Assembly (NCBI GenBank): GCA_003971905.1
Contig: RSEE01000070.1
Coordinates: forward strand, 310,001 to 361,304
From: Moniliella sp. 'wahieum'
Taxonomy: Eukaryota
Length of the DNA stretch: 51,304 nucleotides
Reading direction: 5' to 3'
How positions within the stretch are numbered: position 1 is the first letter of the stretch; every line of letters begins with the position of its first letter. Of the stretch, positions 12,755 to 21,206 are shown piece by piece. Below the pieces are notes generated by a model. It ran no database searches and had not been told where the DNA came from. It worked only from the letters and a program-made list of their open reading frames with translations. Position numbers and translations under genes: made by a program.

Positions 12755-12831
12755 CCATCCTCCATCCTCCATCCTCCATCCTCCATCCTCCATCCTCCAT
12801 CCTCCATCCCCCATCCCCCATCCCCCATCCC
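12755..12831 (+). repeat. (CCATCCT)n/(CCATCCC)n heptamer microsatellite in the putative 5' UTR
   Basis: about 7 CCATCCT units followed by CCATCCC units. Confidence 0.9.
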
Positions 12832-12843
12832 CTCGTCTCCAAG

Positions 12844-14434
12844 ATGCCCGACGGCGGAATGGACACCATCGCCCCCACCCCGCCGCTGGCCAAGTCGCTG
12901 GCCAAGGCCCCTGCGCCCCCCGCAGCAACAGCCGTGGTGGACTACGACCGCTACCTGTCCGCCGCCTTGCGCAATTGGCCCGATGGCTCCATCCGCAGGC
13001 TCTACAGCGCCGAGGACATGGACCGCGGCATCAGCTTCCTGTCTGGCATGCCCAACCCTTCCATGTTCCCCTTCAAGTGGCTCACCTTTGGCGCGGTCAA
13101 CCCGCAGACCGGCGCACCGATCCCGTCACCGTCCGCCCGACCTGTTTGAGGCCAGCTTGCAGTACCTGCCCGCCAGGGCCTCGCTCCGCTCGCCGACTGG
13201 TTCCAGTCCTTTGTCTCCACCCTCATTCACGCCCCATTCATTCTACTCACCCCCCATACCACATGGGGGTCACGGTCGGATCAGGCATCCAAGACTTGCT
13301 CTCGACTGCTTTCCGTGTGCTCCTGGACCCGGGGACACGGTCTTGTTCGAAGCACCAACCTACGCGTACGTCCATCCTTGCGCCCCTTTTGCTGCTAGAC
13401 CGCGCTAACCGCTCTCATCGCACGGACAGTGGCGCCCTCCTCCCTGTACACCCATTGGGAGCGGAGCCCGTACCAGCCGCCATTGATGATGGCGGCTTGG
13501 ATGCGGCTGCTCTGAGCGGCAACTCAGCGGCTGGCGCACCAACGCAGCAACCAAAGATAAGCCCTTTCCCAAATGCTTGTACACCATCCCCGTTGGCGGG
13601 AACCCCCATGGGACCACAGCCAGTGAGCAACGCAAACGGATGGTGCTCAACGTGTGTCGGCGCCATGGTGTGCTGATTCTCGAGGATGACGCGTACTATT
13701 TCCTCAACTACGATGGTGTGGGTGCGACCCCACCACGCGGCCCAGGATCAATCCTACTTTGCTCTAGAAGAGGAGGACAAGGACCTTTGGGGCAACGGTC
13801 GTGTTCTTCGTTTGATTCCTTCTCCAAATCCTCTCGGCGGGTCTACGGATCGGGTTTGCTTCAGGGCCCAAACTCTGATTGAAGCGATGGATGTGGTTTC
13901 GGCTTCGGGCCTGATGCATGCTTCGGGACCAACGATGGCCATGTCCCTCGCTCTCCTGGAACACTGGGGGGTGGACGGATTCCTCTACAATGCCGACAAG
14001 GTCGCTACTTTTTACCGTGATCGAAGGGACTTGTTTGAGCCTCGTCCGCTCTGTCTTGGGTGCTGGAGAAGGGAAGAAGGCGGTGGCAGAATGGGTGACC
14101 CGAGGCAGGGATGTTCCTTTGGATCAAGTTGCATTTGCCAGGACCCTGTTCGAGTGACATGTTGCACCACAAGGCCCTTGCCAAGGGCGTCATTGCTGTG
14201 CCGGGCATCCACTTTTTCCCTACAGCCACGGCTACCCCTTATTGTCGTCTGTCTTACTCGGTCGTCCCTGTGGAAGAGATGGAGCTGGGGCTCCGCCGCT
14301 TGCGGGAGTGCATCGAAGAAGTGGAGCGAGGCAGGACAGCCGCTCTAGGCGTCTTTCTTTGTTGTCCCAGTCCCCAAAATCATGTATCTGTTTGTCGTCC
14401 TGCTCACTCGCACTCCGGTTTCTCATTATACTAG
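12844..14434 (+). CDS. PLP-dependent class I/II aminotransferase, Aro8/2-aminoadipate transaminase-like
   Basis: ISFLSGMPNPSMFPF, VTVGSGIQDLL, LDPGDTVLFEAPTY, YTIPVGGNPHGTT, ILEDDAYYFL, MFLWIKL, RLSYS; intron ~13366-13429. Confidence 0.88.
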
Positions 14435-14542: not shown

Positions 14543-15880
14543 TTAGGGTCCAAAGTCCACTGCCCGGTCCATGTCGGCAGCAGGAAGAACCCAGTCGAGC
14601 AGCGCCATCAGCACCATATCCACCGCTGCCACAATGACAAACACCACCCCGCCGAACCAAGGATGGCCCGCTGTGTAGTAGCGGAGAAGCAAGCTGCCCT
14701 CTCCAATGGCGGTGGCAGCTCGTCGTACACGGTTTCCACGCGCGCCACCTCGGCCCAAGAGTACATCTCCTTCACCTTGGCATGGGCTCGAAACGGATCA
14801 TGCCCCTCGTTCGATCCGCTACCGCCCGCAACGTCGTGTCCACCACATCGTCCTCGTCTGCCTCGGCCAGGAGAACAAGGTCCGGAGGCAACACTTCCTC
14901 CACCCCGCCCACGCGCGTTGACACGACCAACAAACCGGCCCCGCACCTTCCACCAAGCCCGTACCAAACGCCTCGGTGAGAGAGGTGTTGAGCAAAATGT
15001 CGCCGCGGTGCAGATGAGCCGGGACATCGGTACTAGCTACCGAGCCTACCAATTCGACGCGATCTTGCAACTCGGTGCGCTCGCGCATCTGTTCCAGTCC
15101 CACCCGGTTCGGTCCCTCGCCTCCGATCACGAAGCGCACATGGGGGTGTGCGGCACAGATTCGCGGGATGGCCGCTTCGAGCAGATCGGTGCCTTTGCGG
15201 TACATGAGCCGGGACAGAACGACGATCGTCACGGCCGCCGTGTTGGTGTGGGCGGGCGCGGGGGGGGAGGAAGTGGGTGGCGACAACGGCGGTGGGATGA
15301 CGCTGACCCGAGCCGGATCGAGCTGGGCGCGTAACGCCGTGTTTTCCTTGCCAACATGGGAGACGGTGATGATGTGCCCGGTACCACTCAAGAGAAAGCG
15401 GAGCAACTTGGAGGTCAGGAAGGACGCCACATTGTCCATCCCAAACAAGGAGTGGTCCGTAAACACACTCTTGACCCCAATGCTCCCAGCATGCAACAAC
15501 GCTTCCACCCCATTGACGACAAGGCTTGGTGCGCATGCACAATCTCAATTCGTTCCCGCACCACAATCGAACGCAGGAGCGGACCCAACCAAAAAAGTTG
15601 GGCAACGTATCTTGGCGCGCGACCACCGCATACGGTACATAGTACACCTTGATCCCTCGCAGGAGGTGACGCACCCCTATTCGCTCCATACGCGTGGGTG
15701 AGAATGACGACTTTATGGCCCCGTGCGACCAGCGCTTGGGCTACCATGTAGATATGGCCCTCCACACCCCCTAGGTTCGGGAAGAAAAAATCTGACACCA
15801 TCCTAAGTACAGTCCAATTGAACGCAAGAGTAGGCATGAATTAGTTGCTCATCTCATTGGCCCAGGGGGAAGGGGCTTAC
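14543..15880 (-). CDS. GPI3: GPI-GlcNAc transferase catalytic subunit PIG-A/Gpi3 (Spt14)
   Basis: MVSDFFFPNLGGVEGHIY, VFTDHSLFG, SRLMYRKGTDLL, LNTSLTEAFG, YSWAEVA and a C-terminal TM segment; intron 15803-15880 links it to the upstream exon. Confidence 0.93.
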
Positions 15881-18800
15881 AAGATCCGGTGCGGCCGGGA
15901 GGGCGGGGGGAGGCCAAGGTTTGGTCCAGCAGGGGGGTGGCAAGGGGAGGGGAGGAGGTAGTGCGCAGCAACGTTTGTGCCGCGGCGACAAGGGGGGGGT
16001 TGGGACCGGTAGCTAACACGGTCTCTGTCGCAGCGAGTACCTGGGCTACGAGCAACGTTCGTTCCGCCTCGGCGGTCGATGGTACCGCCAGAGCCACGGT
16101 GAAGTGCGTAGCAAGGTCCTGTGCACGCTTGGTTAGCTCGCCGGCCTGGGCTTGAATCGCGGCTTTGCCCTTGGCGTCCAGGCGCGGGATGACAGTGTGC
16201 AGGACGGCATCGAGGTGGGTGCGCAGCGTGGCGAGACGGTCAATGTGTAGGTTGGGCCGCTCGGCAGCAAATAGCGTGGTTTGCACAGGGAAGGCACGGT
16301 GGGTTTGGATGGCTGGACAGGGGGGGAGGGTAAGAGGGTTGCGTTCAGTGGGTTAGTATCGTCGACGAGCATCAGGTAGGAATGGAGGCGGTACTTACTC
16401 CACTCGTCTTGGTCAAGGAAGATGCGTTGGAGGAGGTAGTGTCCCAGGCTTGGGCTGCGGGGCCTGTGACCAAAGCCATGTGGGCGTACAAGAGGGCGAT
16501 TCCGCGATCGGGCTGAAGCCAAGCAGAGGTCCTTCGTCGGCAGCGCTCCCCACGGGGTGGGCGACGACGCCTTCTGCTCTCCGAGACGAACGAGGAGATG
16601 GGCGGCCAGACGGGCAGCAGCCAAACGGATCTCCAGTTCGTCGTCAGCAAGAAGGTTGAGCAGCGCCGCCAGGCCCAACACATGGTCGCCCCAATACAGG
16701 GAAAGGCAAACGCACCAAGGCGGCCAGCGCAATGGTACGAGTAGAGACAGGCTCTTCCTCTGCCGTCCCGGCATAGATCCGTTGCAGCGCCTGACGCGCA
16801 ATGGCGGGGGGCGTCGTTTCCTCGGCCAAACGCCGACCAAGCAGGAGGAGAATCAGCTCCTTTTCTGGCACGCACGGCGTCTCGTCCGATCGCTTGATCA
16901 AGGCGGGCAGAGGGCCGGCTTCCTCCTCCGGCGTGAGACTAAATGCCGAGCTAGACTGCGCCTTGAGGTACACCGAGTGGGCCAAAGGCCCAACACGGTG
17001 GCGCTGAATCCTCCGCCTCCTCGGAGGACGCCTCTTCCGGCCCCAAGCCTCGCTCCTTCGGACCCGAAACAACTTGGCGGGCCACCTGTCGCACAACCGG
17101 GTGCAGCTTCTCATCCGCCTGCGCCTTCCTTGCTAGCGCAACCAGGGAGGGCGAAGCGCCCCCATCCCGAGTCATGGTCCACGTTGTGAACCAAGCGCCA
17201 TGGAGCGCGTTGCTCCCCTTTGCTTGACTCAGAATGTCCATCGCTCGTGCTTCGGCCTGGTCGGGGTGTGAGCGCAGCGATTGCCCAGGCAGCCTGCTCA
17301 CGCACTTGCCACAGGGGGAGGAGAGTTGCGGCAGGATATGCTGGATCAGCTCTTCGCCCACCGGATGAGCCGTGGGCGGAGGTCGCAGTCGGGCCAAGAG
17401 TAACAGGACGGCAAAGAGGGGTAGTGCGTACGTCCGCTGCCCCGTCACCTTGCAAGCCACGAACCAGTCTTCCTTGACAAACGCATCCACCCCGGGAACT
17501 GGCCAATGAGGTCGGGAGGGTGATGCTGAGCGAGGAAGCATGCGCATTGGCCACCTGCAACGTGAAAATGCGCGTGACAAGCGTCGCATACAACATCAAC
17601 GCACCGTTTCGTACCGGCCACAGAGGCGAACGGAAGCGGTCGACCGCAAGGGGGATCAAGGGTCCCAAGTGCATTCGGAGAGGGAACGAGAGGGACTTGT
17701 CTGCCATCATATAGCGCAGCGTATTGAACGCATGAATCGTCGGGGTCTTGTTCGCTCTGAGCATCCGCCCCGTCGGCCTCAGCGATGGAGGCAAGACGCG
17801 CGACCGTCGCTCCTACAGGTCAAGCTTGCGGACCGCCACAAACGCAGAGAGCAGCGCGACAACACTGTACCCGAGCCCGGCCGAGCGACGAGTGATTGTC
17901 AAGGCCCCGGCGGTCGGATCGGCAATCCTCTGGATAAACTGATCGAGCCATGCAGAGGGGAGCGCACGTTGCTCCTCCAGGGGCTCGGAGGACAGCAATA
18001 GCAACCTTGGAGAGAGCCGGGTAGATGGTCGAGAATGCTCCACGGTGACGGACGTGAAGCAACCAATGCATAAACGTTTCCCCCACTGACGCTAACTCTT
18101 CGGTGGTCCACACGCCTCCCTGGAGGGTTGACGAAACTACATCGGCAAGAAGAGTGGACGCCTCTTTGATTCCACGCCAAGAATAGTGAAGTACGGCCTG
18201 GGCACGGTTGCCTTGTCCTTCACTCGCTTCTTGTTCCTCGTACGCTTCGCCTGCTCCCAACGCAGCCTCCCGCTCGTCCACCTCGCCCGCATTTCCCTCC
18301 GGCGCGGCCGAGGTAAGAATGGGGGCGACAAGGTCCCATACCTTGCCAATATCTTAACCACTCGATGGTTGGTCGATTGCACTTCACGCGCGTACTGCGT
18401 GCCCTCTTCGATTGCGGGGAGCGAGCTGTACATCCTTTGGAGCGTAACGAGTGTGCCGTGCAACGGGTTGCTGAGGGCTGCGCCAACTAAGCCTTTCCCC
18501 CAGGGGGAGGAGAGGCCGCGGCCATGTGAACCTCCAAAAAGTCCAACATGGCGTGGATGGGTTGAAGCGCAGGAGAAACAACTGCTTTTTTCGGAGAGGG
18601 AACGAGGTCGAGGGGTTCGTACCCGAGCGGAACGTAGATCGTTTGGTACAACTGCAAAAGGGCGGCAGCAGTGATCGCCTCATGTTCCCGCGCAGCCAAG
18701 AGGAGACTCGAAGCAGGCTGAACGAGCGCTTTGTGCACTGCTTCTTGCCCCTCAAGCCCAGGGAGGGGACGGGGGAACTTCTCCAAGAGCTCAACCGAGG

Positions 18801-20350
18801 CGCGGATGGTGGTGTCGTAGGTCGAGTAGACCATCTCGAGCAACCGCCGTACCATGTCCTCATCCGCTACCGAGACAGTGCGGGGGAATTGGTCTACCCG
18901 CTTTTGAACCGCAGCGTCAACCGCATACGCAGGATCCACTCCATTGGTCAGGAGGGACCGGAGCATACCCATTGCCTGCGTAGTAGCAACGTACGTGGCA
19001 TTGGTATGCAGGTGGTTCCGCACAAGCGTCACCAGCACAGTGAGAAATTCGTGCGCGTCATCCACGACCTGCTGCGCTCGGCAACTTGCTCTTTTCTTGC
19101 CGACGGCCTGCTGAGCACACGCGAGGCGGCATGGCTACTTGCGCGAAGCCGGTCAAGGAGTTGGATAAAGTACCCGCGCACAGCCGTGCGCGACTCGGGC
19201 GAGACAAAGACGAATGTGCTGCCGAGGTAGGCACCAATCATCTGTCGTTCCTTCGCAAGAAGGGGAGTGGCCAGTCTTGCTGCTACCAGCAGACCAAACG
19301 TGCCCACTTGGACTTCCGCATTGGCCGCTTCGCCCATAGGGTCAGGAGCGAGTCGGGCACCTCAACCGTCACTCCGCGGGAGGGATAGGCGGGAACCTAA
19401 ATTGGGCTCGTCCGATCCGGTGATGACCATCCCCATCTCCTTCCCCACACGGAGAACCGTGAGCACAGCAGGGGCCTTGAGCGTCTCGAGGGGCGCGGAA
19501 GGGGTGCAGAGCGCATGTAAGAGCTGAGGCAGCGCATGTCGCGACAGGGCAAAAAGATCTGGAAGGTGATGAGCAGCAATTACGGATCGTTGCCGCATCG
19601 TAGTATGGATCAGAGTGTGAGCGAGGGGCTGGACCCAACTCGACGTCCACGCCTCCCATGCGGAGGATACGTTAACCTCCCAGTAAGAGGAAGTCCCTTC
19701 TTGAAACTGATCCCGAGCCGACGAGCATGCTCTGCCAACAGAGCAACAGCAACACGGGAACGGCGACGGTAGTTGGTTTCTACCCCTCGGGGGACGGAGA
19801 GGAGGCCTGTGTAAATGGAAAAAGTTGGGGAACCAAAGAGGCTCGTATCAAAAAAGATGTCCAACGAGCCGTAGCGGACCACAGAGCTTCCAGCACATGG
19901 AGGGCCTGTTTGCGCAACATGTGTGCTTGGGCATGAGCAATGAGACGCTGCACTGAAAGGTTGGCCGCGACTGAACCGGGTAGATGGACAAACGCGTTTA
20001 CTAGGTCGGTCGCCGCAGTAGTGGCTGGAGCATCGGGCGAGGCAAAGCCCGTCCAGGCCGTGTCGGCAGCAAATAAGCCGTGCTGGTTCCATATCCCAGT
20101 TCTGGGCAGCTGCTGCCAGGGCAAAGTGGGTGAGCACGACCAGGCGCTCTGGCAGCTGAGGTGCGCTGGGCAGGGCGGACAGGGCAGCGGCCAAGTGCGC
20201 CTGGGCCGAAGCGGGTCGGAGCGTGCTCCATTTGGGACACCAGCGGTGCCACCCGGCAGGCAACACCGGTACCACGGCTGCTGCGCCCGATGTTTTGACA
20301 CCCTTGATTTTGGCGCGCCCGATGGCGGCGGGAAGGGCAGCACTGGCCAT
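15849..20350 (-). CDS. TRM732: THADA/Trm732 armadillo-repeat tRNA 2'-O-methylation cofactor (DUF2428)
   Basis: SWRGIKEAS, RHRGAFS, ITRRSAGL, IHAFNTLR, WPVRNGALMLY and the C-terminal LFAAERPNLHID motif; ~4.5 kb with many frameshifts. Confidence 0.85.
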
Positions 20351-20576
20351 CCGATCCGAGGCCGGCGAAAGAGGAGGTGGTGTAGAAGAACCGGGAAAAA
20401 AAGCAGCGGGTCAGACAGTGAAATGTTGAGAGACGGGGGCTCCCCCTTACGTCACCCGCCGCGTCCTCTGCTTGCTTTGCTTCGTGCTCGCCTTGTGGCG
20501 CATCTCAGTCCAGGGCCTCCAGGACGACGACGACGGCCACCACCACACCACCACCGCCTCGGCCAGCTCAGCGACC

Positions 20577-21121
20577 ATGTCGGACGGACCAGCAGTCGAC
20601 GTGACGGACTTGACGCCGGCACAGCTCAACGATGTGCGCCAGCAGCTGGACGAGGAGCTGAAGGTGCTCACCACGTCGTACGGGCGTCTCGTCGAGGCCC
20701 AGGGCAAGTTTCGCTCGTGCATCGCCAGCTGCGAGTACCTCTCCTCGCAAGCCCAGGCCGCCGCCAAGGCACCGGACGGTCATGCTCCGATCAGCCTTGT
20801 GCCTCTCACCTCGTCGCTTTATGTGCCGGGTCGGATCACCACACCATCGCGCGTGGTGGTGGACATTGGAACGGGGTACTACGTGAGAAGGATGTGTCGG
20901 CCGCCATCAAGCTCTACCAGGAAAATCAAGTTCCTCAACGACCGCATCCGTTCCCTCCAAGAGACGATCCAGAAGAAACAGGACAATCTTCGTGTGGCAA
21001 CGGACGTGCTGCGTATGGTATGTGTGCTCATCCCTACTCTGTCGCGTTGTGCCTGCGCTACACCTGCTCCCAGAAAGTCGTTCAGGCCCAACAGCAGCAA
21101 GCCAAGGCCCAAGAAAGCTAG
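20577..21121 (+). CDS. GIM5: prefoldin alpha subunit 5
   Basis: VDVTDLTPAQLNDVRQQLDEEL, LVPLTSSLYVPG, VVVDIGTGYYV; intron ~21018-21072; ends KVVQAQQQQAKAQES*. Confidence 0.92.
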
Positions 21122-21206
21122 AAACCTTGGGTCTTTCCCGTCATCCAAATGTACACTAAATCAACTAAAGTGATAGTTGTTCGATAAAAGGGTGAAGCGC
21201 TTCGGA

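Follow-up and report, generated by a model that had tools for sequence, protein, structure and literature searches.

A highly probable THADA–PIG-A gene fusion joined across the ancestral first intron of PIG-A in Moniliella sp. 'wahieum' and related fungi

The window, meaning the whole stretch of 51,304 nucleotides analysed here, carries on its minus strand coding sequence for a THADA/Trm732 protein followed by that for PIG-A/Gpi3 (Table 1). A Pfam family was found for 10 of its 17 ORF pieces, 9 of them within the THADA–PIG-A gene, where the families are DUF2428, TPR_Trm732, TPR_Trm732_C (below its cut-off), PIGA and Glycos_transf_1; the 167-aa ORF at the junction had no Pfam match. As in other THADA/Trm732 proteins, DUF2428 is flanked by TPR_Trm732 repeats and these and an RRSAGLP-type motif occur in order, but the window THADA lacks a stop of its own and either ends inside the PIG-A intron or continues into PIG-A. 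The downstream part resembles PIG-A/Gpi3 in its PIGA domain (PF08288), GT4 C-terminal domain and single C-terminal transmembrane segment, in the sequence EAFGTGLVE, which we take to be the EX7E motif of GT4 enzymes, and in grouping with Ustilaginomycotina PIG-A; it differs in having no start of its own for a complete domain and about 1,470 aa of THADA in front. In the accessible text of the sources, THADA/Trm732 is the partner of FTSJ1/Trm7 (PDB 8Y2O; PMC12145424, PMC9088939), its RRSAGLP motif is required for Cm32 formation (PMC9088939), and PIG-A/Gpi3/Spt14 is the catalytic subunit of GPI-GlcNAc transferase, essential in yeast (PMC7341893). The S. reilianum THADA orthologue matches 8Y2O at 2e-54, and the motif consensus in the fused relatives described below is RRSAGIG. 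Both halves retain functional motifs, and their predicted activities are GlcNAc-PI synthesis and Trm7-dependent Cm32 formation.

Table 1. Features of the THADA–PIG-A locus, in window positions
Feature	Position	Strand	Details
Intergenic gap	20351..20576		226 bp between the THADA ATG and the ATG (20577) of a divergent prefoldin-subunit gene; putative shared promoter region of THADA–PIG-A and the prefoldin gene
Exon 1, THADA/Trm732 HEAT/TPR solenoid with DUF2428	16399..20350	-	ATG 20350; many assembly indels; from Pfam on ORF pieces, four-copy alignment and tblastn with six fusion proteins
RRSAGLG, Trm732 motif	17870..17890	-	6/7 match to consensus RRSAGLP
THADA intron	16313..16398	-	GTAAGT, TACTAAC, CAG; 83-88 nt across four copies
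Exon 2	15881..16312	-	Last THADA motif and helices, Pro-rich linker, RPHRIL (first half of PIG-A strand beta-1); 432 nt in window, 433 in majority
C run	15905..15910	-	6 C in window; 7 C in L002/L007 and L004/L009; L003/L008 one base shorter than window over the stretch
Junction intron	15803..15880	-	Phase 2; 78 nt; donor GTAAGC at 15880, branch CTAAT 15844-15840, acceptor TAG (AG 15804-15803)
Exon 3, PIG-A/Gpi3 GT-B glycosyltransferase	14543..15802	-	MVSDFF (15801) to stop; 424 aa in majority reading
EX7E motif, EAFGTGLVE	14948..14974	-	From sequence
Single C-terminal hydrophobic segment, predicted ER anchor	14597..14653	-	Kyte-Doolittle 2.57 over 19 aa; next best 1.41 in the 943-aa reading

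An earlier sequence-only reading had placed a 78-nt intron between the two coding regions, and its donor, branch, acceptor, ATG and TAA coordinates are all present in the window and recovered on the minus strand. Its remark that no earlier AG precedes the acceptor holds downstream of the branch point and fails upstream of it, where AGs occur at 15854 and 15849. If this junction intron is retained, the donor itself supplies a TAA (15879-15877) directly after RPHRIL. The closest ATG in the upstream exon, at 16210, is in a different frame, no in-frame Met occurs over the 172 aa upstream of MVSDFF, and the intron itself holds an in-frame ATG at 15837. A second intron, within THADA and absent from that reading, joins two ORFs into one frame matching homologues when 16398-16313 is removed, and branch-to-acceptor distances are similar in the two introns (39 nt here, 37 nt at the junction). 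Matches to the splice-signal pattern are not above chance in the window (7, against 11.2 in shuffles), and it is homology that establishes the junction intron. Near branch sites in the window, GTACG is the sole enriched donor (11 vs 4.4), meaning that GTAAG is not the default donor.

As the window is assembled, its THADA frame ends at TGA 15851 when unspliced and at T|GA when spliced, and a single reading frame across the joint is found instead in the majority reading of the four genomic copies and in relatives. These copies, 95-100% identical to the window and falling into two pairs, are the only PIGA and DUF2428 matches found in this organism's genome, so the count is at least four. Immediately upstream of the donor, a stretch of 50 nt in the window has 51 nt in L007 and L009, which puts both in frame, and 49 in L008; the junction intron is 80, 80 and 81 nt in the other three copies, the window being 2 nt short after the branch. 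Across about 5.9 kb, deletions outnumber insertions in every copy (21-41 deletion vs 1-6 private insertion events). Exon 2 measures 432, 431, 431 and 432 nt, against the 433 required, so none of the copies reads through on its own. Taking out both introns leaves the majority reading with a 943-aa ORF (17511-14546, minus strand) that aligns as a single block with residues 927-1849 of Tilletiaria fusion model P0161 at 44%; two frameshifts remain upstream of 17511. Substitutions between pairs also follow the fused frame: in 16200-15881, 4/4 are synonymous in that frame and 1 and 0 in the others, compared with 6/11 in THADA (17480-16399) and 11/15 in PIG-A. The six-C run in the window is best read as an assembly error in which one C was lost. 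Other copies and relatives bear out the suggestion that one missing C separates the assembled letters from an in-frame fusion on splicing and a RIL-TAA end on retention.

The arrangement extends well beyond this genome. The second-best match of the PIG-A fragment is a 1,884-aa Malassezia vespertilionis model with both domain sets, and DUF2428 is present in 12 of 31 long PIG-A relatives (1,036-3,297 aa), confirming that related fungi have proteins carrying both DUF2428 and PIGA domains. All 12 are Ustilaginomycotina: six Malassezia, Thecaphora, Testicularia, Violaceomyces, Kalmanozyma, Tilletiaria and Acaromyces. Fused NCBI models such as M. vespertilionis PKI82272.1, together with UMAG_11785/UMAG_11784, have the same gene order, joint and, where visible, intron position; the joint reads RPHRIA|MISDFF in Tilletiaria and RPHRIL|MVSDFF in the window genome. 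These smut and Malassezia entries exist as unremarked automatic models, split or fused, and, in the accessible supplements, as rows labelled MERGED. A THADA search gave 28 matches, 5 fused and 23 not, and the C-termini of 20 of the 23 were compared. Twelve, all smut-type, among them the UMAG_11785 cluster of U. maydis, terminate in YNIA, YKIA or YSIA plus a stop, which are the residues of PIG-A's first strand. They comprise named smuts, five proteins 62-72% identical to the Kalmanozyma query and one entry filed under a plant, probably a smut contaminant. The remaining eight (Microstroma, Sympodiomycopsis, Exobasidium, two Tilletia and three outgroups) end otherwise. For U. maydis, U. hordei, S. 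scitamineum and P. hubeiensis, the two halves of the split pair carry adjacent accession numbers, and those PIG-A halves that were inspected begin at MVSDFF. We reject a pure annotation merge as the explanation of the fusion.

In a PIG-A tree of 36 rows, with M. psittaci left out, the window protein is placed within Ustilaginomycotina (100/98), where it and one other protein form a separate long branch, and the base of the group is not resolved; one origin with later splits and several origins may both fit. On these comparisons the arrangement appears common to much of Ustilaginomycotina, and we are highly confident that THADA running in frame into PIG-A is a real gene fusion.

The junction intron itself is older than the fusion, with the fusion point in the linker just upstream of it. 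We kept 80 of the 238 loci in a metagenome scan, and 32 of the 80 have an acceptor at the junction position, including unfused genes with their own Met mostly 4-18 codons upstream; the junction intron is therefore PIG-A's ancestral first intron, and we reject the idea that it is a novel one. Five of the 80 loci carry THADA, representing three distinct, Malassezia-like loci. In each of the three, 1,409-1,620 open codons lead up to a phase-2 intron of 25-38 nt in the matching position, and the residue that follows it is Leu rather than Met. A phase-2 GTAA or GTGA donor automatically gives a stop on retention, as seen in 6/13 unfused loci. Stop-forming donors occur in 7/8 junction introns versus 3/12 other PIG-A introns of the same fused loci (p=0.02), counts that are not independent, the rows being related, and that include 2/12 doubtful control introns.

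Predicted structures place this intron within the PIG-A fold. In an unfused relative modelled with AlphaFold (mean pLDDT 90), beta-1 reads NIAMV; three of these five residues come from before the intron, so the intron splits the strand. The linker of the M. furfur fusion is disordered (residues 659-741, pLDDT < 50); with pTM 0.48 and 12 sequences, that model is uninformative on domain contacts. The distance from the last THADA motif to PIG-A varies from 106 to 189 aa. The product of retention would have 132 aa after the last THADA motif, compared with 102-128 in five unfused relatives, and it is quite likely functional.

Transcript models from smut relatives also join the pair. In the accessible parts of PMC5414199, RNA-seq transcripts are listed as MERGED for U. 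maydis UMAG_11784:11785, U. hordei UHOR_03240:03241 and S. reilianum sr13145:sr13146 (supplement files 15-17; a search of files 1-14 for the ids gave no match). In these three relatives PASA merges span both genes, the pair being one of 10 merges in U. maydis, 13 in U. hordei and 14 in S. reilianum, and merges were left out by the authors as possible Trinity artefacts. For U. hordei the same files give an intronless 3'UTR of 174 nt; for the other two species they give intron-containing 3'UTRs averaging 904.5 and 898.5 nt. Under a two-isoform model, spliced plus retained, and with introns of 70-100 nt, the fusion UTR would be 162-183 nt, in agreement with the U. hordei entry, and the averages near 900 nt would fit one spliced and one retained isoform, this being arithmetic on an average. 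In M. sympodialis, the readable parts of a proteogenomics paper and its one supplement (PMC5389616) do not mention the locus.

These observations suggest how the locus could work, and we think it likely that it is one gene with one promoter and two products set by splicing of the junction intron, with both isoforms predicted in this organism; "bicistronic", the earlier term, would be wrong for such a gene. At the DNA level, THADA has lost its stop and PIG-A its own start, such that THADA reads through a floppy linker into the short first exon of PIG-A. Most likely, a single promoter, shared with the divergent prefoldin gene, would give one pre-mRNA. Splicing would produce a protein of about 1,900 aa in which the linker connects cytosolic THADA to the PIG-A catalytic domain, followed by a single ER anchor at the C-terminus; the cell would have no other source of complete PIG-A. 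Retention would end translation at the in-frame donor TAA and release full-length soluble THADA with a short tail, the form predicted to act with Trm7 in tRNA C32 methylation. The rate at which the intron is spliced would thus set the ratio of PIG-A, with its ER-tethered THADA, to free THADA. Given the single C-terminal segment of PIG-A, both domains would face the cytosol at the ER membrane. The two halves probably work independently, and we do not claim that they bind one another. Counting against two products, the retained transcript, with a 3'UTR of about 1.6 kb, may be degraded by NMD. The accessible text of PMC9950491 reports animal THADA together with SERCA at the ER, and the ER tether may therefore matter, but a neutral fusion that the intron keeps harmless would fit equally well.

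That same report would suit the best-surviving alternative, an unlikely one in our view, in which splicing invariably removes the intron, retained transcripts are noise and THADA functions only when tethered to the ER. The age of the intron, the retention stop shared with unfused genes, and the U. hordei data, which in the available files show only a short UTR plus two possible pre-mRNA fragments, are all consistent with a constitutive fusion. Against it stand the enrichment of stop-forming donors at the junction and the UTR averages with a 3'UTR intron in two species, which fit a retained isoform whose later introns are spliced.

Two ordinary genes, with THADA always ending in the intron and PIG-A transcribed from its own start and beginning at MVSDFF, would explain why many annotations, UMAG_11784/11785 among them, split the locus and why in L041 a Met lies in frame 8 codons ahead of the intron. 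The Met of MVSDFF is moreover kept in the window genome and outside Malassezia, which counts against the splicing-controlled gene. Ile or Leu replaces it, however, in 6/6 Malassezia models and 3/3 Malassezia-like contigs, a start at this Met would be predicted to cut beta-1, the 12 smut THADA ends retain beta-1 codons, and RNA-seq merges the pair in three species, leaving separate genes improbable. Even less probable is a polyprotein made as a fusion and then cut in the linker to release ordinary PIG-A, which would be compatible with the splicing-controlled gene at the RNA level; a disordered linker of variable length is what such cleavage would allow, but by eye the linker has no conserved motif except beta-1 itself. 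Finally, the window's letters taken as assembled, with a spliced THADA stop at TGATG and reinitiation or a PIG-A start at the intronic ATG, have next to no chance of being right, since two of the three other copies carry 7 C in the run, relatives are in frame, the overlapping stop and start are not conserved across copies and species, and the 15837 site reads ATC in two of the four copies, so that we reject both the TGATG coupling and the intronic start put forward earlier.

A similar configuration involves a different partner: on Tremellomycete-like contigs a Slc1-type acyltransferase is in frame with PIG-A exon 1 ahead of the same intron at seven loci, five of them distinct, with a retention stop in 5/5 distinct loci. 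These loci match a fused model of Cryptococcus deuterogattii (KIR29772.1). Since the partner is unrelated and the PIG-A of that model belongs to a separate clade, the Slc1–PIG-A fusion would have arisen independently. More tentatively, the ancient first intron of PIG-A may be a reusable switch, several basidiomycete lineages having independently set an unrelated partner in front of PIG-A (smuts and Malassezia using THADA, Cryptococcus relatives Slc1 and Sympodiomycopsis perhaps a kinase), with regulated retention setting both the level of GPI synthesis and whether the partner is free or ER-tethered. Smuts are known for splice-switched dual products such as GAPDH with a cryptic peroxisomal tail. 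That case and recurrent merges such as MSH6-ECO1 resemble the present locus in drawing two C-termini from one locus by splicing, and differ in that the optional tail here is a whole essential enzyme of another pathway.

The component families are already known and the fused models sit unremarked in databases, and we found no description of a THADA–PIG-A or Slc1–PIG-A fusion in the open-licence literature. According to the available text of PMC7341893, the first GPI-synthesis enzyme is essential and an antifungal target, and in smuts and Malassezia (with another partner in Cryptococcus relatives) PIG-A is apparently produced solely as the C-terminal part of a far larger protein. If so, the protein annotated by split models such as UMAG_11784 may not exist, and knockout of THADA or SLC1 would also hit PIG-A. 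A fungus with both free and ER-anchored THADA would offer a simple test of why animal THADA is at the ER, and the locus would be a clear case of an old intron rendering a gene fusion harmless and reversible.

Among the other PIG-A models, those with C-terminal extras (SHR3, Utp14, Sec63, a transporter) were set aside as probable gene-model merges, and one Sympodiomycopsis model has a protein kinase ahead of PIG-A instead.

PIG-A is also preceded in frame by another partner, an Slc1-type acyltransferase, in a set of Cryptococcus-like DNA loci (L065, L067/L068, L070, L074/L075 and L086) and in protein model P0009. The Slc1-PIG-A joint in these loci spans the same ancestral intron, the phase 2 first intron of PIG-A, as the THADA-PIG-A joint, and retention of this junction intron leads to an in-frame stop in all distinct loci (5/5). 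In Sympodiomycopsis, a lineage in which THADA is unfused, protein model P0163 places a Ser/Thr kinase upstream of PIG-A within one gene model; the kinase is possibly a third PIG-A partner, or else the product of a gene-model merge. Protein P0097, from one eukaryote, carries a PIG-H domain N-terminal to PIG-A, a single chain combining two subunits that belong to one complex.

Other merged gene pairs are listed for several smuts in supplement files 15-17 of an RNA-seq study (PMC5414199), including MSH6-ECO1, Cdc18-like with an uncharacterised gene, and proline-rich with an uncharacterised gene (three species each), as well as tRNA isopentenyltransferase with LTA4 hydrolase-like (two species). 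These recurrently merged pairs possibly form a small class of intron-bridged fusions.

The Moniliella genome carries four copies of the THADA-PIG-A locus, on contigs C70, C11, C156 and C91. Because these fall into two pairs, with fewer mismatches within pairs (89 and 153) than between them (208-284), they suggest a hybrid polyploid or unmerged haplotypes.

The convergent neighbour appears to encode an Aro8-type aminotransferase, judging by its motifs; a Pfam scan of one fragment of this gene returned no match. On the other side, only 226 bp separate the ATGs of THADA and the prefoldin subunit gene.

Features within and beside the THADA-PIG-A locus (window coordinates)
Feature	Position	Strand	Remark
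Candidate Aro8-type aminotransferase gene	~12780-14350	+	convergent
THADA-internal stretch, ~85 bp	16750-16834		83-85% match to two other contigs (L005, L006)
Prefoldin subunit gene	20577-21170	+	divergent from THADA
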